Shown here: positions 3,606 to 27,333 of the stretch, in pieces
Position numbering within the stretch: the stretch's first letter is position 1
How the letters are laid out: every line of letters begins with the position of its first letter
Origin: Candidatus Methanoperedens sp.
Lineage (GTDB): Archaea > Halobacteriota > Methanosarcinia > Methanosarcinales > Methanoperedenaceae
Reading direction: 5' to 3'
Assembly (NCBI GenBank): GCA_027460535.1
Contig: JAPZAR010000006.1
Location: 60,001 to 92,000, forward strand
Length of the DNA: 32,000 nt
Made by a program: the position numbers and the translations under genes
The notes under the pieces: model-generated
What the model was told of the DNA's origin: nothing
Seen by the model: only the letters and a program-made list of their open reading frames with translations
Database searches by the model: none

Positions 3606-4172
3606 TTATTTTTTTGCAGGCTGATAGACAAGTAAAATATTCCCCGAATTAAACGTCATTGTTCTTAAAAGTTTAAGATCAATCCTGTCCTTGATGTGTT
3701 TTAATAATGGTTTGCCATTGCCTAAGATAACAGGATTCACTATAATCCGGTATTCATCAATTAAGCCAAGCTGTGTAAAAGTTGATACAATGCTGCCACT
3801 ACCGAATATCACCATGTCCTTACCGTGCCGCTGTTTCATTTTTGCGATTTCTTCCGGGATTACCTCTTTAACCAGCCTGGCATTTTTCCATTCAACTTTT
3901 CCCAGAGTCTTTGAGAAAACAATTTTGGTCATATTATTTATTTTGTGAGCAATTTCAAGATCGCTCTTTGAAGTTGATGCAACCGCGGCAGGCCAATAAC
4001 TTTCAAAAAGCTGATAAGTCACTCGTCCGAATAAAATAGTATCGACCGTATTAAGTAGATCGATGGCATACTGGTTGAATTCTTCATCCACGATATGCCA
4101 ATCTATTTCCCCATTAGGTCCTGCAAAGAATCCATCAAGTGTTACCATCTCGGATACAATTATTTTTCTCAT
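3606..4172 (-). CDS. RibD C-terminal domain / dihydrofolate-reductase-like protein (paralog 1, type I)
   Basis: MRKIIVSEMVTLDGFFAGPNGEIDW and ILFGRVTYQLFESYWP are hallmark motifs of PF01872-type DHFR-like proteins. Size is 188 aa. Confidence 0.8.
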   Translation of the reverse strand: MRKIIVSEMVTLDGFFAGPNGEIDWHIVDEEFNQYAIDLLNTVDTILFGRVTYQLFESYWPAAVASTSKSDLEIAHKINNMTKIVFSKTLGKVEWKNARLVKEVIPEEIAKMKQRHGKDMVIFGSGSIVSTFTQLGLIDEYRIIVNPVILGNGKPLLKHIKDRIDLKLLRTMTFNSGNILLVYQPAKK

Positions 4173-4183
4173 GCTAATCCTCC

Positions 4184-4591
4184 TTATTGATATGCTGAAT
4201 TTTCAAGAAGTGATTTTAACTTTTCCAGGTCCCTTGTGACTGCCTCTGCGTCCTTGGCAAACAATTGGTCTGATGTGCCCGGCCGCCGATACAGCGTGAA
4301 GATTAATTCACTGCCATCATTGTTGATAAATACGCGCATGGGATTATAGATTTTCGCTCCAGACGGCAAAGTGACGTCGTGATCCAGAATGCCGAATTTA
4401 TTTTTGTCAGCGAATTTAACTTTGACTCTTCCCATCGGGGATTCGGCGATCCAGTCACCCTTGACATTCTTTATGGAACCGCTGAGTCCTGCGGCCCATT
4501 TGGGCAGATTCTCAGGATTTGAAACGAATTCGTAAACCTGTTCCGCCGACCGATTGATCGAAACACTGATATGCTGGGATTTAAACGTCAT
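4184..4591 (-). CDS. SRPBCC (polyketide cyclase/START-like) family protein
   Basis: 135 aa. The N-terminal I.RSAEQVYEFVSNPENLPKW pattern is typical of SRPBCC ligand-binding proteins. Confidence 0.55.
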   Translation of the reverse strand: MTFKSQHISVSINRSAEQVYEFVSNPENLPKWAAGLSGSIKNVKGDWIAESPMGRVKVKFADKNKFGILDHDVTLPSGAKIYNPMRVFINNDGSELIFTLYRRPGTSDQLFAKDAEAVTRDLEKLKSLLENSAYQ

Positions 4592-4617
4592 TAAAGTCTC
4601 TGTTCATATCTATTTCT

Positions 4618-5100
4618 CTATCTCTTGTTTGCCAGCTCATACGCTTGCTTTAAAGTTTTTATGTCAATTTTATCCATTTTAAGCATTGCAGCCATGACTC
4701 TTTTTGATTTCTCCGGGTCTTTGTCCTGCAACATCTCGACTAATACAACAGGAACGATCTGCCATGACACACCAAATTTATCTTTTAGCCAGCCGCATTG
4801 TTGTTTTTCTCCGCCTTCGGAGAGCTTCTCCCAAAACTTGTCTACTTCTTCCTGTGTCTGGCAGTTCACGACAAAAGATATGGCTTGTGAGAAAGTGAAT
4901 TGCGGGCCGCCGTTAAGTGCTACAAATTCTTGCCCTTCGATTAGGAAACTCGCGGTCATTACCGTACCTTTCGGGCCTGGCCCTTCCTCTCCATATCGAG
5001 TAACGCTTATAATCTTTGAATTTTTAAAAATTGAAATATAAAATTTCATCGCCTCTTCGGCTTTGCCGTCGAACCACAAGAATGGGGTAATTTTTTGCAT
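4618..5100 (-). CDS. PhnB-like VOC/glyoxalase-fold protein (3-demethylubiquinone-9 3-methyltransferase-domain family)
   Basis: [37 protein letters not shown] and [16 protein letters not shown] make up the characteristic signature of this family. Confidence 0.75.
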
Positions 5101-5200
5101 ATGTATCTCCTTTCAGTTTTCTTGCTTTAAATTGTTTCTAGTTTGAAAAATGTTTTGTTCACAATTTTTATTTTTGTCATTTCATTCAAATTTATTCAAA

Positions 5201-5584
5201 TTAAACATTTGTCGGATATACAAACGCAGTTTCTTTTTCTTCTGTCTTTATAGGTCTTACTTCAACACTTGCAGAAGCAACGTACTCAAATTCGGGATTG
5301 TTTTTTGCAATGCTAATAGCTTCATTAATGTCATTTGCTAAAATATGGTAATATCCTACCTGGACATCTTTGCCTATTACAATAATATTTTCTTTCCACT
5401 CCTTATTTGTCCTGGTAATAATAACCCCTTCAAGTATGAGTGGTTGTGCGGCTATCAATTTATTTTGACTTTTTAAAATGTCAATATATATCTCACATTT
5501 TTTAATGAACGCCAGGTGTTCTTCAGCAGACAATGATGCTTTTGCTTCACCATCATTTCGTATAAGCAGCATAAATTCTTTCAT
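5201..5584 (-). CDS. YciI-like (YCII/DGPF) family protein
   Basis: 127 aa. MLLIRNDGE, GYYHILANDINEAISIAKNNPEF and VEVRPI fit the YCII-family pattern. Confidence 0.6.
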   Translation of the reverse strand: MKEFMLLIRNDGEAKASLSAEEHLAFIKKCEIYIDILKSQNKLIAAQPLILEGVIITRTNKEWKENIIVIGKDVQVGYYHILANDINEAISIAKNNPEFEYVASASVEVRPIKTEEKETAFVYPTNV

Positions 5585-5703
5585 ATTTTCATTTTATCCT
5601 TTTGTTAATTCTTTCGCAAGAAGTTCGTTGAGACGATCATATGAATATTTGACGCCTCTTTCCATGCCAGATTCTCAATCCATGCTAAATCCTCTCATCG
5701 CTT

Positions 5704-6279
5704 TCAGGCATGTCCGTATTTAAGCAAGACGATTCCATTTTTAAATGCTCTTGCTCCGAGAAGCTTCAGGTTCATCTTTTTAACGTCTTTGAATAAGCAT
5801 TTGCCAGCGCCTAAAATAACGGGGACGATCACAAGTTGGTATTCATCGATGAGACCGTGGTTTGCAAACTGTTGCACGATAGTACCGCTACCCAATATTG
5901 TGAAATCTTCGCCCTCCTGCTCTTTCAGCTTGATAATTTCTTCCGGCTTTATTTCATGAAAGAGCTTGATGTTTTTCCAATTGTGCCCTTCTTCCACATT
6001 CTGCAGCGTTTTTGAAAAAACTATCTTCGGGCTATTGTTCACAACCCGAGCCATACCCGGATCGTTCTTGATCGCATCCGGGGTGGGCCAGTAGCTTTTC
6101 ATCATCTCATAGGTCGTATGGCCAAAAATCAGCGTATTGCCTGATTTGGCCGCCTGCTCATGGGTATACGAATCGTATTCATCATCTTTTTTAATTGCCT
6201 TGAACCAATCTATCTCACCGTGTGGTCCGGCAAAGAAGCCGTCGACTGTCACGTGATTAAATACGCTTATTTTTCTCAT
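5704..6279 (-). CDS. RibD_C / DHFR-like protein (paralog 2, type I)
   Basis: MRKISVFNHVTVDGFFAGPHGEIDW and LIFGHTTYEMMKSYWP. Clearly paralogous to 3606-4172. Confidence 0.8.
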   Translation of the reverse strand: MRKISVFNHVTVDGFFAGPHGEIDWFKAIKKDDEYDSYTHEQAAKSGNTLIFGHTTYEMMKSYWPTPDAIKNDPGMARVVNNSPKIVFSKTLQNVEEGHNWKNIKLFHEIKPEEIIKLKEQEGEDFTILGSGTIVQQFANHGLIDEYQLVIVPVILGAGKCLFKDVKKMNLKLLGARAFKNGIVLLKYGHA

Positions 6280-6289
6280 ATTGCTTACC

Positions 6290-6880
6290 TCACGTACTCT
6301 GTGGTTGATAGGTAAGAATCACAACACCAGAACTTGTTGTCTTGCTGTCTACCAGTTTCAATTTTATGGGACCAACCCCGTTTTCAAACAGGCGCTTTCC
6401 ACTGCCCAAAACGAGGGGATGGATCATAAGAACATATTCGTCAACTATCCCAGCCTTCATCAGGGACTGCACCAGCTTCCCGCTGCCTGGGACGTACAGA
6501 AACCCAGAACCAGGTTGCTGCTTCAGTTTGGCGACCTCTTCCTCGACATTCTTCTTGATCAGCATTGAATTGTTCCACTCTACCTTATCCAGGGTCGTAG
6601 ATACCACATATTTGGGTATGCTATTCAGTTTATGGCCTATTGGGTCATCTTCAGGCGCATTGGGCCAGTACGCGGCAAAGATCTGATAGGTCACCCGACC
6701 AAGGAGCAAAGCATCTGCAGCCGCTATCAGCTCACCTATAATTTTTCCCTTTTCAGCGTCGAAGTATGGCATTTGCCAGCCGCCGTACTTGAACCCTCTT
6801 TCCGTATCCTCCCAAGGATAACTCGGCGCCTGCATGATACCATCCAAAGTCAGAAAATCTCCTACAACTAATTTTTTCAT
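6290..6880 (-). CDS. RibD_C / DHFR-like protein (paralog 3, type II)
   Basis: MKKLVVGDFLTLDGIMQAP, GFKYGGW and LLLGRVTYQIFAAYWP. Paralogous to 7333-7947. Confidence 0.8.
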   Translation of the reverse strand: MKKLVVGDFLTLDGIMQAPSYPWEDTERGFKYGGWQMPYFDAEKGKIIGELIAAADALLLGRVTYQIFAAYWPNAPEDDPIGHKLNSIPKYVVSTTLDKVEWNNSMLIKKNVEEEVAKLKQQPGSGFLYVPGSGKLVQSLMKAGIVDEYVLMIHPLVLGSGKRLFENGVGPIKLKLVDSKTTSSGVVILTYQPQST

Positions 6881-6885
6881 GTCCT

Positions 6886-7328
6886 TTATCGCCCCTCGTA
6901 TGCCTGTTTTAAAGTTTTTATATCAATCTTTTTCATCTTGAGCATCGCCTGCATTACGCGATCGGCTTTCTCTCGATCGGGGTCATTGAGCAAGCGTGGC
7001 AGGGTAGTAGGAATAATTTGCCAGGAAAAACCGTATTTGTCTTGAAGCCAGCCGCACTGCTGGGCCTTCGGATCGCCGCCCTCACTGAGCTTATTCCAAT
7101 AATAGTCAACTTCTTCTTGCTTTTCGCATTCTACATAGAAGGATACGGCGCCAGATGGCTTAAAGAACTGACCACCGTCGAGGGCCATAAACCTTTGCCC
7201 CTCCACTTCAAACACAGCGGTGAGGACTTTTCCCTCCATGCCTTTCATCGGTCCAACCAAAGGCCCCTCGGGATAGCGTTTTTATCAAACCATAAGAAGG
7301 GAGTTATTTTTTGCTTGAAGGTAGCCAT
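6886..7328 (-). pseudogene. PhnB-like VOC protein, internally deleted and frameshifted paralog of 4618-5100
   Basis: The ATG at 7328 encodes [18 protein letters not shown], matching [14 protein letters not shown] of the intact paralog, then reaches a stop. The remainder, RYPEGPLVGPMKGMEGKVLTAVFEVEGQ... to [14 protein letters not shown], continues in another frame as track ORF 6886-7260. About 20 codons of the N-terminal region are missing. Confidence 0.6.
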
Positions 7329-7332
7329 AATT

Positions 7333-7947
7333 TTACTCCTTTAGCGCAAACGATCCCGTCTTTAGGTCTCCGGCGGGTTCATAGGTAGCTATGATCACAC
7401 CGGTAGTAGAAGTTTTGCTATCAATCAGCTTGAGATTAACCGGTTGCGTTCCCTCACCAAACAGCCGCTTGCCCTTCCCTATAGTAACCGGGAAAATCCA
7501 TAACCGAAACTCATCGATAAGATCATGTTTAAGCAATGTTTGAATAAGATTGCCGCTACCGTGCACCTGGAGTTCGGGCCCTTTTTGCTCCTTGAGATTT
7601 CTGATTGCCTGCGCCACGTTTCCCCTTACCAGTGTGGAATTATTCCAGGTCACTTCTCCAAGGGTTCTGGAGACAACATACTTCTTGACGCTGTTCAATT
7701 TGTCGGCAACCGGGTCATCTTTAACGTATGGCCAGTGCGCAGCAAAGATTTCATATGTCTTCCTGCCCAATAATAACTCAGAAGGCTTTGCCATAGATTC
7801 GCCCATTACTTGCCCCATCATGTCATCCCAGTAATTGACCGTCCATCCGCCGTAGGTAAAACCGCCGGTCGGATCTTCCTCCGGTCCCCCGGGTGCTTGC
7901 ATAACGCCATCAAGCGTTACAAATGTGCTTACAATAAGTTTTCTCAT
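7333..7947 (-). CDS. RibD_C / DHFR-like protein (paralog 4, type II)
   Basis: MRKLIVSTFVTLDGVMQAPGGPEED, GFTYGGW and LLLGRKTYEIFAAHWP. Confidence 0.8.
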   Translation of the reverse strand: MRKLIVSTFVTLDGVMQAPGGPEEDPTGGFTYGGWTVNYWDDMMGQVMGESMAKPSELLLGRKTYEIFAAHWPYVKDDPVADKLNSVKKYVVSRTLGEVTWNNSTLVRGNVAQAIRNLKEQKGPELQVHGSGNLIQTLLKHDLIDEFRLWIFPVTIGKGKRLFGEGTQPVNLKLIDSKTSTTGVIIATYEPAGDLKTGSFALKE

Positions 7948-11164: not shown

Positions 11165-11432
11165 AAGTATAGCCATTGAACTTACAGCCTTCCGAAGGGC
11201 GCTGCGCGGTTGTGACAGGGACGCATTTGACCGTATCATGAACATGTCCCGCAAACATGCGTCCTCGTCAACTGTCGCCCCGCTGCTTGATCCGATGGAC
11301 TCGATGTTCATGTCGATACTGATCGAGCAGCAAAAAGAGATAAACAGGCTGCAGGAGGCAGTATATGCATCTGCTGGATGTGCAGTACAACCGGGAGGAC
11401 AGCACAGTAACATGCTGGATAAAAAAGAATGA
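11127..11432 (+). CDS. Uncharacterised small protein of the PolB2 operon (101 aa)
   Basis: The ATG at 11127 follows ggaggtga with 6-nt spacing. The gene overlaps the RadA-like 3' end by 38 nt and the PolB 5' end by 68 nt. No family was recognised. Confidence 0.5.
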   Translation: MGRTVPSFRVLLESIAIELTAFRRALRGCDRDAFDRIMNMSRKHASSSTVAPLLDPMDSMFMSILIEQQKEINRLQEAVYASAGCAVQPGGQHSNMLDKKE

Positions 11433-13512
11433 TGCCTGCCTGCCTGTAAAAGAGACATACTATCCTGAAATATATGTCACTGGCGGCTCTGAGCTGAAAT
11501 CCCTGATAGCTACCATCCCTGGTGTTGTTGACACAGGTTTCCAGGATAAAAAAACGCATCTCTCAGGTGGATTGGAGCGTCTCATTTCTGTGAGGGTGAA
11601 GAGCACAGATGCAATATACGAAATAGCCGGGATGCTCGAGGCGCGCGGATGCATGCTGTATAACATCGACCTTGACCCGGCACGGCAGTACCTGCTTTCG
11701 AAAAACCTGTTCCCCATGGCAGATCTGGATATGGATGACCGGTATTCGATGGATTACACTATCCCGCATCTTAAGATCATGGAGCTGTCGGTAAAGCCAA
11801 AGAAGCAGCACGGAATAACCACCATGGACGACCCTATTGGCAGTATTGCCCTGGGAGAAAGCGTACTTGAAAGCGATGAAAACATGATGCTGGACGAACT
11901 TTCCAGACTAGTGGCAAAAGAAGACCCGGATATCATTGCCACAAACGGAGGCGACAGCTTTGACCTGCCCTATCTCTACCACAGGGCCGAACTCGCTGGC
12001 ATCCCGATGCAGCTTGGGCGCATGCGCGGCAGGGATCCCAAAAAGGGCAGGTCGTACTTCAGCTACGGCAGGATAATCTACAAACCCGAAGGATACGTCC
12101 TTTCAGGCAGGCTGCATCTTGACAGCGCATCGTTCATGTACAGGGAAGGCGGCCTTTCAGGGCTAATCGATCTTGCGCGCATCACGGGTATACCGATGCA
12201 AGACCTGTCTCGCATAAGCCCGGGCAGCGCTGTGACGGCGCTGCAGGTCAACCAGGCTCAAAGGGATGGCGTTCTAGTTCCATGGAAGCGCAACCTTGCG
12301 GAGGACTGGAAGACGGCTCTGGAACTCCTGATAGCCGACCGTGGCGCGCTTGTGATAGAGCCGCGGGTCGGGCTGCACGAGAATGCGGCTGAGATTGATT
12401 TTGCATCCCTTTTTCCCAATATCATGGTCACCAGGAACATCTCACCTGAGACCGTGCTGTGCGGATGCTGCCTTGACTCGAAAACGCGGGTGCCCTTTAC
12501 AGGCTATAACATCTGCGAGAAGCGGATCGGGCTCATACCCAGGGTGCTCAAGCCCCTCATCGAACGGCGCATGGCATATAGGAAGCTGGCGCGAGAGGAT
12601 ACTTTGAGGGCAGAGGAATACGAAATGAAGCAGAACCTGCTCAAGTGGCTCCTTGTCACGAGCTTCGGGTACATGGGTTACAACAAGGCGCGCTTCGGCA
12701 GGATAGAATGCCACGAATCTATCACGGCGTACGGCCGCGAGATACTGCTGCAGACGATCGACCTGGCAGAGGAGATGGGCTTTGAGATACTTCACGGGAT
12801 AGTGGACAGCCTGTGGGTTAAAGGTAATGGCGTTGAAGAGCTGTGCAGGCGCGCCAGCGAGCGCATAGGGATATCGCTTGAATACAAAGGAGAATTCAAG
12901 TGGATCGTCTTCCTGCCGAATAAATCCAACGGCACGGGCGCGCTAAACCGCTACTACGGCGTTATGGGGAACGGGAAGTTGAAAGTGCGGGGAATAGAGT
13001 TGAGGCGCAGCGATACACCCGCACTAATGATAAGGCTGCAAGAGGACATTCTGGCATGCCTTGCGCGCGCTGAGGATGCAGAAGGGTTCTACCGCGCAAT
13101 CCCCGATGCGCTCAGGATACTGCGGGAGTATTCTAAGAAGGTGCTTGCTGGGGAATGCAGCATTGAAGATATGATCTTTACAGCCCACGTATCCCGCGAA
13201 CTTCCGGAGTACAGGCAGTCCAACAACAATACGGCTGCTCTCAGGCAGTTCCAGAAAGAAGGTATTGCGATACATCCCGGTCAGAGCGTCAGGTACGTGC
13301 TCACGGACCATGCCTCGAAGAGCTACATGAAGCGCGTTAAGATCGCGGAGCTTGTGAATGAGAACACGCAGTACGACCGAGGGAAATACTACGAGCACCT
13401 GCTCAGAGCCGCAGAGAGCATCCTTTTGCCATTCGGATATACGAAAGAGAGGCTGGACGGGTTGATGCACGGGAATATGCAGGCAAGTCTGGAGAGATGG
13501 ATTATACGATGA
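11365..13512 (+). CDS. polB: Family B DNA polymerase, PolB2-like, with altered catalytic motifs
   Basis: Exo II is intact (NGGDSFDLPYL). The Exo I position reads KIMELSV instead of FDIE. Motif A is DFASLFPNIM (canonical DxxSLYPSII). Motif B is KWLLVTSFGYMGY (KxxxNSxYG with N changed to T). Motif C is HGIVDS instead of YGDTDS. Confidence 0.85.
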   Translation: MHLLDVQYNREDSTVTCWIKKNDACLPVKETYYPEIYVTGGSELKSLIATIPGVVDTGFQDKKTHLSGGLERLISVRVKSTDAIYEIAGMLEARGCMLYNIDLDPARQYLLSKNLFPMADLDMDDRYSMDYTIPHLKIMELSVKPKKQHGITTMDDPIGSIALGESVLESDENMMLDELSRLVAKEDPDIIATNGGDSFDLPYLYHRAELAGIPMQLGRMRGRDPKKGRSYFSYGRIIYKPEGYVLSGRLHLDSASFMYREGGLSGLIDLARITGIPMQDLSRISPGSAVTALQVNQAQRDGVLVPWKRNLAEDWKTALELLIADRGALVIEPRVGLHENAAEIDFASLFPNIMVTRNISPETVLCGCCLDSKTRVPFTGYNICEKRIGLIPRVLKPLIERRMAYRKLAREDTLRAEEYEMKQNLLKWLLVTSFGYMGYNKARFGRIECHESITAYGREILLQTIDLAEEMGFEILHGIVDSLWVKGNGVEELCRRASERIGISLEYKGEFKWIVFLPNKSNGTGALNRYYGVMGNGKLKVRGIELRRSDTPALMIRLQEDILACLARAEDAEGFYRAIPDALRILREYSKKVLAGECSIEDMIFTAHVSRELPEYRQSNNNTAALRQFQKEGIAIHPGQSVRYVLTDHASKSYMKRVKIAELVNENTQYDRGKYYEHLLRAAESILLPFGYTKERLDGLMHGNMQASLERWIIR

Positions 13513-13571
13513 ACGCAGATAATGCAGAATTATCAATGGTATCCGTGTTATGTTGATATTTCATTCGTTTA

Positions 13572-13634
13572 CCGTAACGGTAGTTTTGGCTATAAATTCC
13601 GTTACGCAATTAATTACTAAAATACCCGTAACGG
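13572..13634. repeat. Array 2 of the CCGTWACGS dyad motif (3 copies, 27 bp apart)
   Basis: CCGTAACGG at 13572-13580, CCGTTACGC at 13599-13607 and CCGTAACGG at 13626-13634. The array starts 60 bp after the PolB stop. Confidence 0.9.
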
Positions 13635-13817
13635 CGTTTGTCAGATTATTTTTATTTAAATCTCTTATTTTAATTTATAGCAGGACTTCTATGCCTGGCC
13701 CAATAGTTCCTACCCATAAAACGGATTGAAGTTTCTTTGAACAATCATTTTTTTATGCTGGGAATAAAAGAACCGCGCACAACATAAGTTTATAAACTCA
13801 AAGGATTACCTCGAAAT

Positions 13818-13997
13818 ATGAACCTAAAATATAAATTCAATCCCAAAATGCAACTGGCGTACGGAATATTTGGATTTCTGTCTGCAATAATCATAATCTA
13901 TATTTTCACTCATACCATAAACTGGGGTGTTGGCCTTGGTGTAGGTACCGGGAACTTCATTATTTCGGGATTATGCGATTTCCAGGAATGTGGTTAA
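13818..13997 (+). CDS. Possible small membrane protein (59 aa, 2 TM)
   Basis: An ATG-to-TAA ORF read by hand, just below the 60-aa track cutoff. It has two hydrophobic segments (GIFGFLSAIIIIYIF and GVGLGVGTGNFIISGL). No RBS was recognised. Confidence 0.3.
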   Translation: MNLKYKFNPKMQLAYGIFGFLSAIIIIYIFTHTINWGVGLGVGTGNFIISGLCDFQECG

Positions 13998-14076
13998 GGT
14001 ACCCGAAGAAAAAATGTCGTATAATATACCTTATACGCAGTTTTTATATACATAGAATAACAAAATATAGACTGTT

Positions 14077-14913
14077 ATGCCAGATGACCTGCCTCCAGCA
14101 TTAAAAAAACTCGAGACCGAGATGAAACTGCGGGGATTCTCAAAGCAGACCTCAAAGATGTACCTTTTCTATAACACTAAATTCCTTGAGTATATAAAAA
14201 AACCTCCCGAAGATGTAACCGAAGATGACATCAAAGAATTCCTTGCAAACAAAATAGCCGATGATCTACTTTCAAATGCTTCAATAGCATTGGTCAAATC
14301 CACCCTAAAATTTTTTTACACTGATATGCTCGGAAAAAATATTTCCATGATAAGGACACCGAAGGCGTCAAAAAAATTGCCGGTGGTCCTGAGCCGCAAA
14401 GAAATAAAACATCTGCTGGATAACACGCAGAACCTGAAGCATAAGCTCTTGATTGAGCTTCTTTACTCCACAGGGCTCCGGCTTTCGGAATGTATTAACC
14501 TGAAATACTCAGACATGGACATGAACGACGGAATCGGGTGGGTGCGCCTGGGAAAAGGCGCAAAGGATAGGATATTTATTGTTTCAGAATTGTTCAGGAA
14601 GGACCTTATGGATTACAAGGAAAAAATTCGCGCCGATGGCAAGGGTTATATTTTTTCAGTTAACGGAAAGAAAATGTCCCCGCGAGGCATCCAGCATGCG
14701 ATAAAAGTCTCAACGGAACGTGCCGGCATCGAGAAACCGGTGCATGTACACACCCTCCGCCATTCGTTCGCCACACATCTGCTCGAGAACGGTGTAGATA
14801 TCAGGAAAATCCAGAAGTTACTGGGGCATTCCAATCTGCAGACAACTCAGATATATACCCAGGTTTCATCGGAAGAGATAAAGAAGATAAAAAGCCCGCT
14901 GGATACATTGTAG
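14077..14913 (+). CDS. xerA: Tyrosine recombinase XerA (XerC/D family)
   Basis: The N-terminal SAM-like core-binding domain reads LRGFSKQTSKMYLFYNTKFLEYI. The catalytic region reads GLRLSE and HTLRHSFATHLLENGVDIRKIQKLLGHSNLQTTQIYTQV (the R, HxxR, H and Y residues). 278 aa is typical of archaeal XerA. Confidence 0.85.
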   Translation: MPDDLPPALKKLETEMKLRGFSKQTSKMYLFYNTKFLEYIKKPPEDVTEDDIKEFLANKIADDLLSNASIALVKSTLKFFYTDMLGKNISMIRTPKASKKLPVVLSRKEIKHLLDNTQNLKHKLLIELLYSTGLRLSECINLKYSDMDMNDGIGWVRLGKGAKDRIFIVSELFRKDLMDYKEKIRADGKGYIFSVNGKKMSPRGIQHAIKVSTERAGIEKPVHVHTLRHSFATHLLENGVDIRKIQKLLGHSNLQTTQIYTQVSSEEIKKIKSPLDTL

Positions 14914-17772: not shown

Positions 17773-19119
17773 ATGCTCGACATAATTATTTCACTGTTTA
17801 CCATATTTCTGTATACTGCGCTTGGGACTTATGTTCTCACAAAAAATCCGCACGACCGTACAAATAAGATATTCGCTATTCTCATGCTTGTTTTTATCAT
17901 ATGGTCAGTGGGGACTTACAATGTCGGGATCGCGGCAAATAACATACCTTTGAATGAGGCGATTCTATACATAAAAATCCAATTAAGTAGCGCGATCATT
18001 GCACTGGCCGTGCTGGTTTTCTTTGCTCTTTCCTTTACAAAATCTGAAGGAATTTTTAAAAATCCTCTTACTTACCTCACGATCTTACCATCGGTATACC
18101 TGCTGTACCTGATATGGTTTTCTGATGTGCGAGGACTTCCAGTTAACATTTTTTCCGCAATCCCGGGGGCAAAAGAGGAGTTCTTCCTTTTTTCTACAAT
18201 ATTTGCCGTGGCCGGCATTTTTCTGCTATTGAAATATTACAACGCAAGTAAATACAAAGAGCATGAACAGGCAAAACTTATTTTGATAGGTGTTATAGCA
18301 GCCATCCTTACTGCAATCATAGCAAACATAGTACTTCCCATGTTCTTCGGCATATATGACCTGCAGCTATCAACTATCGGACCGGCGGTGATGGGTATCT
18401 TTTTTGCGTATACTGTTTATCAGTACGGTCTTTTCATAAGACCAATGCCAGAGCTTTCACCTACATCTTTTTGCGGCGCATCGTGCACATTATGCGACGA
18501 ATATCTTAACGATAATTGCAGGGGATGCAGATTCGATAAGGATAGATACACCAACTGCGAGATCTACGGCTGTTTGAGGGAAAAAGGGTATTCAGATTGT
18601 GGCGATTGCCCGGAAATAATTACCTGCATAAAAAGAAATAAAAAACATAAAATATGTTATGAATCAAAGCCAAAGTATAACCTGAAAAAAGGTTTCACAT
18701 ACTTTACGAAAGGGAATGCCCTGGGCTATGACATCTTTAGGGATGCGCTCAGTTGCAGTGCTTTCGGTCTTATCGCCTCCACTGTTCCACCGCAACAAAT
18801 AAAGGAGACATACGGTCTCACAACGACCCCGATAGTTTGGATATCGGATGAGGTCATTGAAATGGGTGTAAGACCAAATAACCTGGGGCGTCTGGGAATA
18901 ATACTGGTCAATTTCATGAAAAAAATCGATAATGGGGTAATTCTCCTGGACGGCGTTGATACCCTGCTCGCCATGAACGATCTTAACAATGTGCTCGGAT
19001 TTGTCCAGATATTGAACAATACAGCACGAATAACAGGCAGCCGGGTGATCATATCGACGTCCCTGGAGGGTGAAGACCTGAACAGAGTGAAAGAGGGTAT
19101 GGAGTACATAAAGGCTTGA
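17773..19119 (+). CDS. Membrane protein: N-terminal 7TM region + Cys-rich DUF3795-like module + C-terminal DUF835-like domain
   Basis: About 7 hydrophobic helices occupy aa 1-220. The Cys-rich block reads CGASCTLCDEYLNDNCRGCRF...CEIYGC...CGDCPEIITC (DUF3795-type spacing). The tail TPIVWISDEV...GVILLDGVDTLL resembles DUF835. Confidence 0.55.
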   Translation: MLDIIISLFTIFLYTALGTYVLTKNPHDRTNKIFAILMLVFIIWSVGTYNVGIAANNIPLNEAILYIKIQLSSAIIALAVLVFFALSFTKSEGIFKNPLTYLTILPSVYLLYLIWFSDVRGLPVNIFSAIPGAKEEFFLFSTIFAVAGIFLLLKYYNASKYKEHEQAKLILIGVIAAILTAIIANIVLPMFFGIYDLQLSTIGPAVMGIFFAYTVYQYGLFIRPMPELSPTSFCGASCTLCDEYLNDNCRGCRFDKDRYTNCEIYGCLREKGYSDCGDCPEIITCIKRNKKHKICYESKPKYNLKKGFTYFTKGNALGYDIFRDALSCSAFGLIASTVPPQQIKETYGLTTTPIVWISDEVIEMGVRPNNLGRLGIILVNFMKKIDNGVILLDGVDTLLAMNDLNNVLGFVQILNNTARITGSRVIISTSLEGEDLNRVKEGMEYIKA

Positions 19120-21417: not shown

Positions 21418-22401
21418 CATCTTTTTAATACCAGTAATCAGTATTCAACTTCTTCAGCAATTTCCGTAAATGTCTCTATTCTTGCAGCAAGGGCTGCCAG
21501 ATCTTCGGGATGGATCAGAGGACCTCCAAGGATTTCTCGCAAGCCAGCCTTCTCAAAATTCTTGTTCATGCCAGTATTACTTCTTTTTTCTGTGATTGCG
21601 TCGTTATTGTTCCATTCCTTACTCTGAGACGTTCTTGTCTCTGAACTCGCCTCTTTATATGTAATTATTCCGGAAACCCCAAATTCTATTCGAATTCGAG
21701 CTTCCTTATAAGATTCTTGATCAGTAACACCTGATGCATCAAAATTTGTATCAAACGTGGAAAGGGTCCCCTTCTGTACATATGCACCAATTTCCCAATC
21801 TTTATAAAATCCCTTTGTCGTCTCAGCCATCAGATGTGTTCCACGTATAACAGCTGCCTCACCAAATATGCCTTCGAAGGTCAAATCCTTTATATTTTTC
21901 TTCTTGACCATTTCCTTAACACCTGATAAAGCCCCAAAGAAAGCGGCAAAATCTTTCGGACCAAATGACGAAACATCAAGTTTAGCGCCGCATTCCTTCA
22001 TGGCTCCAAGAGGGTTCTCAAGGGCAAACAAGAAAAATTCATCACTTTTAATTGCCTTTTCAACAAAACGCTTCAATCCAATAGATCGCACAGGGATGGT
22101 TATGCAGATCCTTTTTTGTTTATTCATACTTATCACTCCACTCTCATCGGGATTCTTTCACCCTGCCGCTGGTGATTATTCTTGACATTACCACCACATA
22201 ATGGATTTTCAATCCCGCTCAAATACAAATTGTCATGAGCATGTAAATATCTTTCGGTATTATAATTGTAAAATAGAACTTGTTATTTCACCGTTGTTAC
22301 CCAGAATCCAAAAATCCCTTCTACTTCAATCTCAATAAATTCGACCCGATGAAAATTTGTGGCATCTAAGATCTTAATTTCACCCTGCATCTATTCCACT
22401 C
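21418..22401. repeat. Segmental duplication, copy A (~0.98 kb), paired with 23900-24840
   Basis: By hand alignment, the nucleotide sequence is nearly identical over both ends of the NHLP-like gene and about 265 bp of its upstream region. The gene interior is diverged and carries indels. Confidence 0.85.
21438..22136 (-). CDS. NHLP/Nif11-leader-like domain protein (232 aa), candidate radical-SAM substrate/precursor, copy A
   Basis: The N-terminal LKRFVEKAIKSDEFFLFALENPLGAMKECGAKLD resembles the nitrile-hydratase-leader/Nif11 leader pattern (..KAwkDpeF...L..NP..al.e.G..L). A Gly-Gly lies in ...GLREILGG/PLIHPEDLAALAARIETFTEIAEEVEY. An SD (ggagtga) lies upstream of the ATG. Confidence 0.5.
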   Translation of the reverse strand: MISMNKQKRICITIPVRSIGLKRFVEKAIKSDEFFLFALENPLGAMKECGAKLDVSSFGPKDFAAFFGALSGVKEMVKKKNIKDLTFEGIFGEAAVIRGTHLMAETTKGFYKDWEIGAYVQKGTLSTFDTNFDASGVTDQESYKEARIRIEFGVSGIITYKEASSETRTSQSKEWNNNDAITEKRSNTGMNKNFEKAGLREILGGPLIHPEDLAALAARIETFTEIAEEVEY

Positions 22402-22491
22402 GCCCGGCGCATCCTCTCCACCGCATCCGCCGAGCCATCTTCACCCAGCCTGAGCGCCGGGAGTAATGCGCCGCCCAGAAAGACTTTATAT

Positions 22492-22521
22492 ATCTGCGTT
22501 CATCTGCGTTTATCTGCGGTT
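22492..22521. repeat. Three tandem 10-bp repeats ATCTGCGKTY
   Basis: ATCTGCGTTC, ATCTGCGTTT and ATCTGCGGTT lie head to tail in the gene-free gap between copy A and the radical SAM gene. Confidence 0.85.
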
Positions 22522-22792
22522 CGTATGTCCACAGGAGGTTGCTTCGGTAACATATCGGCGCCGCTCTGTCTGAATTATTATCAAAACTTCCAAATCCTGC
22601 TTCATCTGCGCCAGCCCATGCGCCTCCTCCCCACCGGTATCTTCCTCACCTCAAATTCATTGCGCCTCTCCCTCAACCACCACTTGCGCACACTCTCTTT
22701 TAAAAACGTTGGGGTCTATGCCTTATGTAAAGATATCGTACAACCATAAGATACAACTACGTCAGTAACAAAATGATGTCGATGAATATATT

Positions 22793-22798
22793 AAAAAA
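22793..22798 (-). terminator. Oligo-T (T6 on the minus strand) candidate terminator after the radical SAM gene
   Basis: The minus strand reads CTCTTTTTTAA, 27-32 nt past the rSAM stop codon. Confidence 0.35.
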
Positions 22799-22824
22799 GA
22801 GCGGGAGAGTTGGCAGGGCTGGTA

Positions 22825-23895
22825 CTATGTAAGCGCTGTTTCCGCCTTAAGAGCCTTAATTTCTTCCGAGGTTCGCATATGATCGTAAAGGCATCTTTCC
22901 AAAGAGATTTCTATGGCTTTTTCATGACCAAATTCTGAAAGCACTGCCCTGCAATCTTCTCTCGTAAGGATTTCGCTGCATAAATGGCAATTGTTAACAT
23001 ACTGTTTTCGAAAAGGGATATCGGGGTTCTTCTTGAGAATAAACTTCATGAGCCCATAAGGCCCCTCAAGCGCAAGCCAGTTAACGATGAGGTCTTTATG
23101 CGCCATGATTATCAGTTCTTCTAATTTATATTCATCAAGGGTGCCAAAAACAATCTCCTCAACCTTTCTCGGGACCATTCCACAACAAATAGAAAGTTCT
23201 TTGCGCGGAGTTATTACAATTCGTTTAAGGATGGACGAACACGGAGCTTTCCAGTGATTCTCGCATGGAGGATAGAGTATTTCCTCGTCGGGAATCAGGT
23301 GCATGTTCTCCGCTATAGGTACCGTGTATCCTGTATCGACCAGATTGTTGTCTGGATTTTTCTTCTTTGGATCGAAACGAGAAAGCTTGTATCCCAAAAA
23401 TTTTTCGAGGTGATCCAGCGAAATAGTGCAGTTTTTCATAATTTTATGCCCGATAAGACAGGGAAGCCCAACTTCTATGCAAGCATCATTTGCGTATTTT
23501 ATCCTTTCAAGGGGTATGAACTCCTGATGATAATCGTCGCAGCTGAGGTTTATTTCCTTTAACCCTGCTTCTTTGTATGACTTCATGGTGTCTCTTGCCA
23601 CTTCAGGCGTTCTTGCCCAAAACGCATTTGTAACTATTCTTGTTAAGAGTCCCTTTTTGGCACAATATTTTACACTATCGAGGAGATCATCCCCAAGAAG
23701 AAAAGGCTCGCCTCCCGTAAAGACTACCAGTTCCAGTTTTCCAAAAGAATATACCTCATCCACTATTTCGATCATATCCTTTAGAGAAAGACGTTCTGTA
23801 TGCTCTGGACCGCACTCTGCCCCGCAGTACCTGCAGCTTATCGGGCACTGGTATGTGGTGGAAAAGACAAGGCTGGAAAGCATATCATCTCTCAC
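22825..23895 (-). CDS. Radical SAM enzyme with a Cys-rich C-terminal extension
   Basis: YQCPISCRYCGAEC is the CxxxCxxC radical SAM cluster motif, and VVFTGGEPFL is the SAM-binding GGE motif. The C-terminal half has at least 8 Cys (PPCENHWKAPC, ICCG, NNCHLC, EDC, ERC), enough for auxiliary Fe-S clusters. I do not see the canonical SPASM CX2CX5CX3C. The start is GTG at 23895, with an alternative ATG at 23883. Confidence 0.85.
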   Translation of the reverse strand: MRDDMLSSLVFSTTYQCPISCRYCGAECGPEHTERLSLKDMIEIVDEVYSFGKLELVVFTGGEPFLLGDDLLDSVKYCAKKGLLTRIVTNAFWARTPEVARDTMKSYKEAGLKEINLSCDDYHQEFIPLERIKYANDACIEVGLPCLIGHKIMKNCTISLDHLEKFLGYKLSRFDPKKKNPDNNLVDTGYTVPIAENMHLIPDEEILYPPCENHWKAPCSSILKRIVITPRKELSICCGMVPRKVEEIVFGTLDEYKLEELIIMAHKDLIVNWLALEGPYGLMKFILKKNPDIPFRKQYVNNCHLCSEILTREDCRAVLSEFGHEKAIEISLERCLYDHMRTSEEIKALKAETALT

Positions 23896-23899
23896 TGAA

Positions 23900-24840
23900 C
23901 ATCTTTTTAATGCTAGTTATCATTATTCAACTTCTTCGGCAATTTCCGTAAAAGTCTCTATTCTTGCAGCAAGGGCTGCCAGGTCTTCGGGATAGATCAG
24001 AGGACCTCCAAAAATATCTCCCAAGCCAGCTTTGTCAAAATTCTTGTTCCAGCCATTAGTACTTTCTCTGTTTCTGATAGCATCCTGTTTGTCCCATTGC
24101 TTATCCGAACCCGAACTTGTCTCTTTACTGGGATCTGCAAATGTATTTCCTATAATTTCCTATCGACCTCGAAATATTTATCACTCGTTGAAAGAACCTG
24201 TTTTTGGGAATATGCGCCTATTTCCCAATCTTTATAAAATCCCTTTGTCGTCTCAGCCATCAGATGTGTCCCACGTATAACAGCTGCCTGACCGAATATG
24301 CCTTCGAATGTTAAGTTCTTTATATTTTTCTTCCTGACCATTTCCTTAACACCTGATAAAGCCCCAAAGAAAGCGGCAAAATCTTTCGGATGGAATGATG
24401 ATGCATCAAGTTTAACGCCACATTCCTTCATGGCTCCAAGAGGGTTCTCAAGGGCAAACAAGAAAAATTCATCATTTTTAATTGCCTTTTCAACAAAACG
24501 CTTCAGTCCAATAGATCGCACAGGGATGGTTATACTGATCCTTTTTTGTTTATCCATACTTATCACTCCACTCTCATCGGGATTCTTTCACCTTGCCGTT
24601 GGTGATTATTCTTGAAATTACCACCACATAATGGATTCTAGATCCCGCTCAAATACAAATTGTCATGAGCATGTAAATATCTTTCGGTATTATAATTGTA
24701 AAACAGAACCTATTATTTCACCGATGTTACCCAAAATCCAAAAGTCCCTTCTACTTCAATCTCAATAAATTCGACCGATGAAAATTTGTGGCATCTGAAG
24801 ACCTTAATTTCACCCCGCATCTATTTGTAATTCCACACTC
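23900..24840. repeat. Segmental duplication, copy B (~0.94 kb), paired with 21418-22401
   Basis: See copy A. The left edge lies 5 bp from the rSAM start codon and the right edge about 10 bp before the rnp4 ATG. Confidence 0.85.
23923..24566 (-). pseudogene. NHLP/Nif11-leader-like gene, copy B: frameshifted and internally shortened paralog of 21438-22136
   Basis: The N-terminal part (track ORF 24150-24566) differs from copy A at 9 positions over the first ~118 aa and stops at 24150. The conserved C-terminal part, ...NGWNKNFDKAGLGDIFGGPLIYPEDLAALAARIETFTEIAEEVE*, is readable only in another frame (23923-24159). The net length difference from copy A is 55 nt. Confidence 0.6.
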
Positions 24841-24850
24841 ATTAAACCTC

Positions 24851-25156
24851 ATGCGCAAAAAACAGAAAGATTGGGCAAAGGACATGGCGCACCAGCGAAT
24901 CGTCAGGCTTTTTGAGCTTGCTGGCCAGGAATTCAGAACGCATCCCGAGCGCAGCGACAGGTATGTGAGGCTGGCAAGGCGCATAGGGATGAGATACCGC
25001 GTCAGAATCCCGGAAGGGCTGAAACCGCGAATTTGCAAACACTGCCATGCTTATCTGGTCCAGGGGGTAACTGCACGCACAAGACTCCAGGGAACCCATA
25101 TTGCAACGACCTGTACAGCCTGTGGAAAGCAGATGAGACGCCCTTATCATGCTTGA
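24851..25156 (+). CDS. rnp4: RNase P protein component 4 (Rpp21 homolog)
   Basis: AHQRIVRLFELA and RYVRLARRIGMRYRV, plus the zinc ribbon CKHC...CTAC. The track ORF begins at a GTG at 24788, but the conserved part starts at the ATG at 24851. Confidence 0.8.
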   Translation: MRKKQKDWAKDMAHQRIVRLFELAGQEFRTHPERSDRYVRLARRIGMRYRVRIPEGLKPRICKHCHAYLVQGVTARTRLQGTHIATTCTACGKQMRRPYHA

Positions 25157-25944: not shown

Positions 25945-27333
25945 ATGAGAAATAAAAAGGTTACTTATGTTTTAGTGTCGCTGCTAATCATTGCCGGGTT
26001 GATCGCGGCTGGTTGCGTGGGCCCAAATCAATCCGCTGCGCCCAAACCAACAGTAAACGAAACAATTGCTGTCCAGCAGTCCACTGAAAACGATCGCATG
26101 ATAGATCAAAATGCCAAAACGATGATGGAACAGGGCAGGCAAATCTTTCGTTTTGACACTTTCGGCGATGAAGCCTTCTGGGGCGATTCTCTTAAGCTGC
26201 ATCAGGCCATCGCAGGCACGGCTAATGGTGGCGTGGGACCGGGCGTGAGCCCGAAAACAGCTTTAGCTGTAGGTTTAAAAGTCGATATGGATGCGCTTCC
26301 GAAAGAACTGGTTGATAATCTGAAAGCTGGCAAAGTCAATCTGGATGACCCGGCCACTACGCTTGCGCTTCTTAAGCTGAACGCTGTTGTTGGAGTTAAT
26401 GGTTCATTTGATAATTCTGGAAAACTCAGTTCAATTGGAATTACATGTGCTCTTTGCCACTCAACAGTAGATGATTCGTTCTCTCCGGGCATTGGCCACC
26501 GCCTGGATGGCTGGGCAAACCGCGATCTTAACGTTGGAGCAGTTGTAAATCTTTCCCCCGATCTTACATCTGTAGCCAAAATTCTGGGCGTTCCTGAAGC
26601 TACAGTGCGAAAAGTACTCAACAGTTGGGGTCCAGGGAAATTCGATGCAGAGCTTTTCATGGATGGTCCCGCCAAAGCTTTCCGTCCGGATGGAAAGTCA
26701 GGAGCCACACTGATCCCGCCAGCGTTCGGTCTTGCAGGCGTGAACCTTCATACCTGGACAGGATGGGGTTCCGTACCACACTGGAATGCATTCGTCGCCA
26801 ATCTGGAGATGCACGGTAAGGGGAATTTCTTTGACCCTCGATTGGATAATGCATCTCAGTTCCCGATAGCTGCTGCTAATAGGTTTGGTCATGTGACTAT
26901 CGATCCTGACCAGGATATGATTACTTCAAAGCTTCCTGCCCTTCAGTTCTACCAGCTTTCCATTCCCGCTCCCAAGCCACCTTCAGGCAGTTTCAACGAG
27001 GAGGCAGCTAAGCGGGGGGACGAACTCTTTGGAGGGAAGGCCGGTTGCGGCAAGTGCCACATCGAGCCTCTGTGGACGGAGCCAGGCTGGAATATGCACA
27101 AGCCCAGTGAAATCGGTATCGACGATTTCCAGGCTAATAGAGCGCCTGATCGAAGTTATCGCACATCTCCGCTAGCGGGACTCTGGACTCATCAGAAAGG
27201 TGGCTTCTACCATGATGGTCGCTTTGCCACTCTTAGGGATGTGGTAGATCACTACAACAGCTTCTTTAAACTGAACCTGACCTCACAGGAAGAGAATGAC
27301 ATTGTCGAGTATCTGAAGTCAGTCCCGGACTGA
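25945..27333 (+). CDS. Diheme c-type cytochrome, predicted lipoprotein (CCP/MauG-like?)
   Basis: The signal peptide carries a lipobox (LIAAGC). There are two CXXCH heme-binding motifs (CALCH and CGKCH). Assignment to the peroxidase-like family is tentative. Confidence 0.65.
   Translation: MRNKKVTYVLVSLLIIAGLIAAGCVGPNQSAAPKPTVNETIAVQQSTENDRMIDQNAKTMMEQGRQIFRFDTFGDEAFWGDSLKLHQAIAGTANGGVGPGVSPKTALAVGLKVDMDALPKELVDNLKAGKVNLDDPATTLALLKLNAVVGVNGSFDNSGKLSSIGITCALCHSTVDDSFSPGIGHRLDGWANRDLNVGAVVNLSPDLTSVAKILGVPEATVRKVLNSWGPGKFDAELFMDGPAKAFRPDGKSGATLIPPAFGLAGVNLHTWTGWGSVPHWNAFVANLEMHGKGNFFDPRLDNASQFPIAAANRFGHVTIDPDQDMITSKLPALQFYQLSIPAPKPPSGSFNEEAAKRGDELFGGKAGCGKCHIEPLWTEPGWNMHKPSEIGIDDFQANRAPDRSYRTSPLAGLWTHQKGGFYHDGRFATLRDVVDHYNSFFKLNLTSQEENDIVEYLKSVPD

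Follow-up and report, generated by a model that had tools for sequence, protein, structure and literature searches.

A candidate two-gene cassette of an EpeE-like radical SAM enzyme and a protein-sized putative substrate in Candidatus Methanoperedens

Gene layout, duplication and the state of gene B

The DNA analysed here is a 32,000-nucleotide stretch of Candidatus Methanoperedens sp. (contig JAPZAR010000006.1, positions 60,001 to 92,000; hereafter the window), which carries a gene for a radical S-adenosylmethionine (radical SAM) enzyme between two related genes, A and B. From the sequence, the locus had been proposed to be an archaeal, proteusin-like system for a ribosomally synthesised and post-translationally modified peptide (RiPP), a proposal we refer to as the original prediction. 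Its gene order—gene B, the radical SAM gene, a gap of 0.69 kb and gene A, all on the minus strand—agrees with the list of open reading frames (ORFs), as does its radical SAM ORF at 22825..23895 of the same strand. Start codons were chosen by comparison with homologues, giving ATG 22127 for A, ATG 24557 for B and ATG 23883 for the radical SAM gene. The enzyme is 352 aa long when read from this ATG (22825..23883) and 356 aa from the GTG at 23895; counted to the same two codons, the gap between gene B and the radical SAM gene measures 39 nt and 27 nt, respectively. Gene A, first placed at 21438..22136, is intact and occupies 21438..22127 on the minus strand (229 aa; stop codon 21438-21440). An alternative GTG start at 22136 would add three codons, and homologues begin M[ND]KQKRI, favouring ATG 22127. 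A protein from a metagenome-assembled genome (MAG), P0001, is 100% identical to gene A.

Gene B (23923..24557, minus strand), in contrast to what was first proposed, is not intact. Three-frame translation places the end of its reading frame at a TAG (24152-24150), 138 codons from the GTG and 135 aa from the ATG, leaving a truncated ORF at 24150-24557; the remainder (23923-24149), with the C-module described below and the conserved tail (IFGGPLIYPEDL...), falls in the −1 frame. In a tblastn comparison, residues 1-133 of the intact orthologue P0003 matched B at 100% identity in frame 1, and its residues 152-229 at 97% in frame 3. A further contig, L045, is 98.5% identical to window positions 26427-22237 and encodes an intact B of 229 aa; relative to it, 55 nt are cleanly missing from the window at a junction near 24159/24160, exactly where the TAG stop arises. 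Alignment with these relatives identifies gene B as a pseudogene, broken by a frameshifting deletion. Since a second MAG is annotated with the same truncated 135-aa product (P0009), the truncated allele is established in a population and is not an assembly error. A rescue of B by pyrrolysine read-through or a programmed frameshift was considered and rejected, as the tail is out of frame regardless of the TAG; it is also contradicted by the 98.5%-identical contig, which has the intact gene with exactly 55 additional nucleotides.

The near-identical N-terminal segment and tail that A and B had been said to have in common are confirmed, and the similarity extends into the surrounding DNA. Positions 21418-22395 are a ~90%-identical duplicate of 23900-24825, including ~260 nt 5′ of the start codon, and direct repeats in the duplicated region are spaced 2430 nt apart. 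The region upstream of B (24558..24825, minus strand) is the original copy of the promoter/5′ region, and the promoter/5′ untranslated region upstream of A (22128..22395, minus strand) is its duplicate. By this comparison, A and B are not independent genes: A, together with its upstream region, is a duplicate of B. The duplication (22346-22395 versus 24775-24825) extends beyond the promoter region into the first bases of the divergent Rpr2 (RNase P) ORF at 24788..25156 on the plus strand, whose 5′ end is overlapped by the B upstream region, so that a short 5′ fragment of Rpr2 has been left upstream of A. For the duplicated 5′ region, an Rfam scan gave no RNA element, returning only tRNA-Val, and bacterial promoter and terminator scans stayed at background level.

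Contig L045 ends within the upstream repeat of the second copy, implying that the duplication is older than the deletion in B. In a sister Methanoperedens genome (contig L043), a lone intact A-like gene immediately precedes the radical SAM gene, at the same site between Rpr2 and UbiA. The likely history is therefore an ancestral arrangement with B in the canonical position, immediately 5′ of the radical SAM gene, a duplication to B–radical SAM–A that put the diverged second copy A, with its own promoter, downstream of the enzyme gene, and a subsequent loss of 55 nt from B. Given this loss, A would be the sole functional substrate gene here. Between the radical SAM stop codon and the duplicated region lies a unique 430-nt spacer (22396-22824) without a convincing ORF; in its place, 3′ of the radical SAM gene, the sister contig carries a HEPN/nucleotidyltransferase toxin–antitoxin pair.

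Architecture of the radical SAM enzyme

Counted from the GTG, the enzyme contains a CX3CX2C motif (C17/C21/C24) and a candidate auxiliary-cluster and hydrogen-donor set made up of C219, the doublet C237-C238 and C303xxC306, all of these cysteines being invariant in 30/30 homologues. Pfam recognised Radical_SAM (7.8e-15), over the core only, and the best NCBIfam model was TIGR04078 YydG (E 1.5e-20), matched in the N-terminal half of the protein (residues 8-133). YydG, or EpeE, is the radical SAM enzyme of the Bacillus subtilis epipeptide system. It was also the top hit of the single protein in a PDB sequence search (4.6e-8), and with a profile of the enzyme family the match rose to 3.6e-20, the next being PqqE at 7e-6.

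For the C-terminal domain, the likeness to EpeE is visible only by profile–profile and fold comparison. An AlphaFold model of the enzyme (predicted local distance difference test, pLDDT, 91.4) found the EpeE structures 8AI1-8AI6 as its top Foldseek matches, with an E value of 1e-17 over ~340 aligned columns and a template-modelling (TM) score of 0.72 query-normalised and 0.78-0.80 target-normalised, compared to 0.50 for the next fold. The model matches the full-length EpeE fold, that is, a radical SAM core followed by a one-cluster extended twitch (‘T-SPASM’) domain. Alignment of the enzyme family to the YydG family with hhalign, the latter represented by three homologues of 243-284 aa, reached 99.4-99.5% probability over 234-274 columns and paired all five C-terminal cysteines one for one: C219 with the Cys of a YydG-family ‘CPG’, C237-C238 with a ‘PCC’ doublet and C303xxC306 with a ‘CxxC’.

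EpeE holds an auxiliary [4Fe-4S] cluster in its C-terminal domain, where Cys223 gives the hydrogen atom that inverts Cα (PMC13012085, PMC8326336). The YydG homologues we retrieved have their CC doublet at 221-224, so Cys223 very likely lies within it; this YydG-family doublet is the one with which the doublet of the present enzyme aligns. PoyD-type epimerases, which act on proteusins, have no significant homology to those of EpeE type (PMC8326336), and the PoyD-type model TIGR04517 was absent among the 25 best of the 55 NCBIfam matches of the enzyme. Hence, by fold and profile comparison over its full length, this is an EpeE/YydG-type two-cluster enzyme and not the proteusin-type radical SAM epimerase that had been envisaged.

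The gene A family and its pairing with the enzyme

Proteins of the A family are rare: a word-indexed search found 21, and among 1.84 billion clusters there were 49 representatives at 50% identity. No Pfam domain or name was attached to any family protein found. The features below come from alignments of 30-41 members, with motif counts taken over 30. The proteins are cytoplasmic and 170-250 aa long. A basic N-terminus with an invariant Arg-Ile leads into a helical domain ending in FExIF, the early part of which in gene A is a three-helix segment (21978..22082, minus strand; residues ~16-50 in ATG numbering, LKRFVEKAIKSDEFFLFALENPLGAMKECGAKLD). The spacer that follows is disordered, very variable in length and altogether absent from some members. 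It gives way to a polar module of ~40 residues, in which F/W occupies one aromatic position in 28/30 members and a second in 30/30; the two are usually 18-20 residues apart, and 36 in one subgroup. In gene A, this variable ‘C-module’ lies at 21534..21647 on the minus strand (residues 161-198) and contains W172 (..SKEW..) and F191 (..NKNF..); the K-x-W and NKNF motifs already noticed in A and B are real and mark these two family-wide positions. Four loci (L006, L014, L017 and L040) have their A-family gene downstream of the radical SAM gene and anchors 36 rather than ~19 residues apart, as if the module had been duplicated. Behind the module come a Pro (30/30), L/M (30/30) and I/L (28/30), and the proteins always end 18-28 residues past the invariant Pro, in a helix. 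The corresponding tail of A (21441..21533, minus strand; residues 199-229) consists of P203-L204-(I/L)205 and an amphipathic helix running to the C-terminus.

An AlphaFold model of A (GTG numbering) had high confidence for residues 15-92 and the last 30 residues, with 95-195 disordered. The helices of its N-terminal domain (19-30, 32-40 and 42-48) scored pLDDT >90, and the tail (pLDDT 81-92) forms a helix that packs on this domain, with a β-bridge between 52-53 and 207-208 connecting the domain to the PLI motif. Foldseek returned nothing significant for the model, and a PDB sequence search with the family found no support. Because the tail is the most conserved part of the protein and AlphaFold packs it on the N-terminal domain, it resembles a structural or recognition element more than a core that is released. 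Its earlier reading as a core peptide following a Gly-Gly fails, as the Gly-Gly is not conserved: a Gly precedes the invariant Pro in 13/30 members only, the other 17/30 having V/A/T/S/E at this position, and the second Gly is rarer, Gly-Gly being confined to close relatives.

Comparing paralogue A with the intact form of B region by region separates constrained ends from a divergent middle. The N-terminal domain (dN 0.038, dS 0.20, dN/dS 0.19) and the tail (dN 0.03, dS 0.20, dN/dS 0.15) are, by these estimates, under purifying selection. In the spacer, dN was 0.76 and dS 1.6, the latter saturated. The aromatic-anchor module had accumulated 28 nonsynonymous versus 3 synonymous changes (dN 0.38, dS 0.16); the resulting dN/dS of 2.3 does not significantly exceed 1, given the few sites, but its constraint is clearly unlike that of the flanks. 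As divergence concentrates between the conserved ends, the variable, core-like part of A would be internal.

Both proteins had been described as beginning with a segment resembling nitrile hydratase leader peptide (NHLP) or Nif11 leaders. The NHLP part of this description is borne out by repeated but sub-threshold matches; for Nif11, there was no match to the leader model TIGR03798 across 41 family members. Gene A itself matched no NHLP model in NCBIfam, and B reached E 0.019 with NF038399, the Os1348 family, at 15 bits versus a cut-off of 40. In the wider family, NF038399 was matched by 16/41 members (best 4e-6), TIGR03793 by 12/41 (best 7e-3), TIGR04509 by 7/41 and Pfam Frankia_peptide (PF14407) by 8/41 (best 4e-5), all below the curated cut-offs; the sole recurring model from outside the NHLP clan was IniB_NTERM, which is unrelated (5/41). 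The NHLP-clan matches cover ~35 residues and map to the three-helix segment at residues ~20-52. Os1348 (6LK7) was the only NHLP-type structure among the insignificant Foldseek matches of A (TM 0.43-0.54 target-normalised, E ~4.5). Taken together, the first ~35 residues of the helical domain carry a weak but reproducible signal of remote, clan-level NHLP homology, not of membership. We also considered that the tail might complete an NHLP fold, with the middle of the protein as a β-hairpin insertion. Loop-deleted constructs of three members, run against NCBIfam with reversed-tail controls, gave no gain (14.1 versus 14.4 bits), which leaves the idea unsupported in sequence and with only the predicted β-bridge in its favour.

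The radical SAM family is broader than the A family, with at least 225 homologues, and its members are regularly found next to an A-like gene. In 6/6 contig look-ups of radical SAM homologues, a Pfam-less protein of 178-245 aa adjoined the enzyme gene, five times immediately upstream and once downstream. A scan of one genome per species yielded 36 radical SAM loci, all in MAGs; according to a hidden Markov model (HMM) of the A family, an A-type ORF abuts the radical SAM gene on the same strand in 29/36, and at least three further loci have a divergent upstream ORF with an xPL[IVF]xP-helix tail. On this comparative evidence, the two families are a conserved gene pair, as the original prediction anticipated. 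The pair can also include several A-family genes: L001 has two in tandem, and in the window, as probably in L045, one copy lies on either side of the radical SAM gene. Such multiplicity, together with a hypervariable stretch enclosed by conserved ends, is consistent with the earlier idea that A is a dedicated, precursor- or substrate-like protein. All-against-all comparison of the neighbouring ORFs at 40 loci revealed no third recurring gene, and no recurring protease or transporter. One locus, L043, has a divergent gene upstream of its A-like gene (L043:5521-6306) for a 261-aa papain-like Peptidase_C1/C39_2 protein, which could be an optional processing protease; such a peptidase was not found in the window (by tblastn) nor at the other loci.

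The suggested archaeal character of the system did not hold. Radical SAM loci occur in >15 phyla, mostly bacterial, as well as in archaea, and the closest relatives in the genome collection are Brocadia MAGs. Besides Brocadia, the lineages among the 36 loci include Sedimenticolaceae, several Desulfobacterota, Acidobacteriota, Nitrospirota, Phycisphaerales, Chlorobiota, Bathyarchaeota, Methanotrichaceae, Sericytochromatia, Armatimonadota, Chloroflexaceae and others. As the neighbourhoods of the cassette are unrelated to each other and often contain integrases, transposases or toxin–antitoxin pairs, a mobile two-gene module would fit. Some copies of the cassette are decaying: at a bathyarchaeotal locus (L039) the radical SAM gene is broken up over three frames and the A-type ORF is reduced to its tail, and at a Phycisphaerales locus (L021) no partner ORF was found beside the radical SAM gene.

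A predicted epimerase cassette, its alternatives and its relatives

Sequence, structural models and analogy together suggest that the locus is a self-contained two-gene cassette of a substrate protein and its radical SAM maturase, for which EpeE-like Cα chemistry yielding D-amino acids is predicted; on balance, we regard this reading as likely. The cassette is probably a minimal RiPP-like modification unit that introduces the predicted D-amino acids into a protein-sized substrate. The enzyme would recognise the folded unit of the N-terminal domain and C-terminal helix of A, abstract the Cα hydrogen at one site or a small number of sites within the C-module or PLI region, and return a hydrogen from a cysteine of the CC doublet to the opposite face, giving D-amino acids. 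In EpeX, the substrate of EpeE, both epimerised residues directly follow an aromatic one (F-(D-Val) and W-(D-allo-Ile)), which makes the aromatic anchors of A, or else its hydrophobic PL(I/L) motif, candidate sites. Since the cassette is without a dedicated protease or exporter, the product may stay protein-sized or be processed by unlinked functions. A bolder extension, possible if speculative, is that the A family embodies a new substrate architecture, in which the variable ‘core’ is internal, forming a disordered loop between the NHLP-like N-terminal domain and a docking helix, and receives D-residues or another Cα modification from the EpeE-type enzyme. The product would then remain protein-sized, intracellular and uncleaved, and the cassette would be a mobile module of anaerobic bacteria and archaea with a function outside antibiotic RiPPs.

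Several observations weigh against an EpeE-like epimerase acting on A. The enzyme is only 17-20% identical to EpeE, and similar radical SAM folds can catalyse different reactions. It misses the equivalog cut-off of TIGR04078 by a wide span (73.9 versus 300 bits), and plain HMMER searches (phmmer and hmmsearch) show no match of its C-terminal domain to EpeE. The place of Cys223 in the doublet is taken from the numbering of homologues, not from the B. subtilis sequence. Asp210 of EpeE is the proposed proton donor for thiol regeneration; the position aligned with it (the K224/R225 region) is variable, with Q/E/K/N and then R/S, and a gap makes this part of the alignment ambiguous. On the substrate side, EpeE epimerises hydrophobic Val and Ile, whereas the residues after the aromatic anchors of the A family are polar. 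The relationship to NHLP proteins comes from sub-threshold matches only, and the docking of the tail was predicted in an AlphaFold run on 41 sequences with an overall predicted TM score (pTM) of 0.55.

Some of these points would suit the main rival, a different chemistry in the same cassette, namely a crosslink or other modification at the conserved aromatics, for instance a C–C or C–O bond as made by the maturases of streptide, darobactin and triceptides. The low identity to EpeE and the lack of a conserved Asp210 equivalent leave room for it, and aromatics present in 28/30 and 30/30 members at a fixed spacing are what one would expect of crosslink sites. Yet no partner residue (Lys, Asn or Arg) is conserved at a fixed offset from an aromatic, and the known aromatic-crosslinking maturases are SPASM enzymes, usually with RiPP recognition element (RRE) domains; SuiB and CteB fit the fold of the present enzyme far less well than EpeE does (TM 0.40-0.53 versus 0.72). 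The invariant CC doublet, moreover, matches that of the YydG family, very likely including the EpeE hydrogen donor, and we find a crosslinking role doubtful on these grounds. A triceptide-like aromatic-X-X cyclophane, considered separately, was set aside: there is no conservation at position +2 from either aromatic.

The classical proteusin-type RiPP of the original prediction, in which a ~200-aa leader is cut at the Gly-Gly and the acidic 25-aa tail is released as the core, seems improbable to us. It draws on the Gly-Gly right before PLIHPEDL... in A, on the NHLP-clan-like N-terminus, on the invariant PL(I/L) as a conceivable modification site and on the papain/C39_2-like peptidase that adjoins one sister locus. 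The Gly-Gly, however, is found in a minority of the family, with a Gly before the Pro in 13/30; no protease or transporter is conserved, and the enzyme is of EpeE rather than PoyD type. A variable, released core would also not be expected to show the strong purifying selection seen on the tail, or its predicted packing against the N-terminal domain. Very unlikely, in our judgement, is a role of A as an accessory or scaffold of the enzyme—a recognition or chaperone partner—with the true substrate encoded elsewhere. The protein-like size of A and the confident prediction of a folded domain in it would suit such a role, and EpeE-type enzymes are without an RRE, which makes a separate recognition partner conceivable. 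Against this stand the absence of a third recurring gene in 40 loci, the lack of similarity of A to PqqD/RRE families and the behaviour of A itself, a multi-copy, diverging protein with a hypervariable segment between conserved ends, which is precursor-like and not accessory-like.

Two further candidates were rejected. A glycyl-radical protein with its activase was suggested by a Gly ~27 residues from the C-terminus, but 17/30 members have another residue in its place, and an RVxG motif is lacking. For a known defence system, PADLOC gave only pVip models on the N-terminal radical SAM core (1e-11, residues 11-124) and no match to A.

How, then, does the predicted epimerase cassette relate to described systems? 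With the epipeptide system of B. subtilis (EpeX/YydF, EpeE/YydG, the protease EpeP and the exporter EpeAB), it shares the overall enzyme fold, the radical SAM CX3CX2C motif, a one-auxiliary-cluster C-terminal domain with the same five cysteines including the CC doublet, a substrate gene directly upstream and aromatics that mark candidate sites. Apart from the enzyme differences given above (17-20% identity, 74 versus 300 bits for TIGR04078, no conserved Asp210 equivalent), EpeX has 49 aa, whereas the substrate here has 170-250 aa with a folded NHLP-like domain; the epipeptide protease and ABC exporter have no recurring counterpart in 40 loci; and epipeptides have been described as restricted to Bacillota, while the cassette occurs in archaea and >15 mostly bacterial phyla. 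Proteusins (PoyA/OspA with PoyD-type enzymes) likewise have a large, structured, NHLP-clan-like N-terminal substrate region, a radical SAM partner predicted to act on Cα and precursor genes that can be multi-copy. In the present family, by contrast, the NHLP match is sub-threshold and spans ~35 residues, no GG/GA cleavage motif is conserved at a leader–core boundary, a conserved C-terminal helix follows the variable part and there are no further tailoring enzymes; PoyD-type epimerases also combine a single cluster with a C-terminal RRE, compared to the EpeE two-cluster architecture seen here.

SCIFF and its radical SAM maturase in Clostridia form a minimal, widespread two-gene cassette without a dedicated protease or exporter, as is the case here; SCIFF is a short, Cys-rich peptide that receives thioether links from a SPASM enzyme with two auxiliary clusters. 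The present substrate differs in being without conserved Cys, and the enzyme in being EpeE-like. Because of this lack of conserved Cys in the A family, thioether (sactipeptide or ranthipeptide) chemistry is disfavoured and was rejected as a candidate. Os1348 of Pseudomonas sp. Os17 (NF038399, 6LK7) provides the best NHLP-clan model for the N-terminal domain of A. It is a putative bacteriocin precursor with the character of a protein and, as with A, no classical core is obvious (PMC7726476). Os1348 is 85 aa long, and its gene is accompanied by one for a GNAT acetyltransferase and by others, but not by a radical SAM gene; it is without the polar spacer, aromatic anchors and PL-helix tail. No NCBIfam, Pfam or PADLOC model covers A or the enzyme as a whole protein, and full-text literature searches turned up neither the combination of an EpeE/YydG-type enzyme and an NHLP-like substrate nor RiPP loci in Methanoperedens. 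The cassette is best filed among radical SAM-dependent peptide or protein maturation systems, as one that can be likened to an epipeptide epimerase whose substrate is proteusin-like and of protein size, while belonging to neither family by their defining criteria.

In the window, the locus is bordered on both sides by ordinary chromosomal genes: one flank has UbiA, a GPN-type ATPase, a 7TM/DUF835 protein and UbiD, and the second has Rpr2 (RNase P), tRNA-Val and a PCC-domain protein. At 17773-19119 (plus strand), a 448-aa membrane protein combines a 7TM sensor region (HisKA_7TM) with a Cys-rich DUF3795 segment and DUF835. On the plus strand at 25945-27333 is encoded a Pfam-less protein of 462 aa with a lipoprotein-like N-terminus (..AAGC) and two CxxCH motifs (CALCH and CGKCH), probably a di-haem c-type cytochrome. 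Elsewhere, four paralogous genes for RibD_C-domain (dihydrofolate-reductase-like) proteins cluster at 3606-7947 on the minus strand, interleaved with a polyketide-cyclase-like gene and a 3-dmu-9_3-mt-family gene, and 11365-14913 holds a 715-aa family B DNA polymerase followed by a Xer-like tyrosine recombinase. The GC content of the window drops to ~33-36% at 5-6 kb, 9-10 kb and 15-16 kb.

EpeE-type epimerases have so far come from a single characterised system, which has been described as Bacillota-restricted; with the radical SAM family described here, the type reaches archaea and numerous bacterial phyla, and its partner is a protein-like substrate of an entirely different kind. Proteusin-like, NHLP-clan substrates had been associated with PoyD-type epimerases, to which the EpeE type is unrelated, and their combination with an EpeE-type enzyme is therefore relevant to the evolution of peptide epimerase systems. 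As it comprises one enzyme and one substrate of ~230 aa, the cassette is directly testable by co-expression. Should D-residues or another modification indeed be installed in a protein-sized product, the cassette would offer a compact tool for site-specific protein modification, as well as a first lead to modified natural products or proteins in the methane-oxidising archaeon Methanoperedens.

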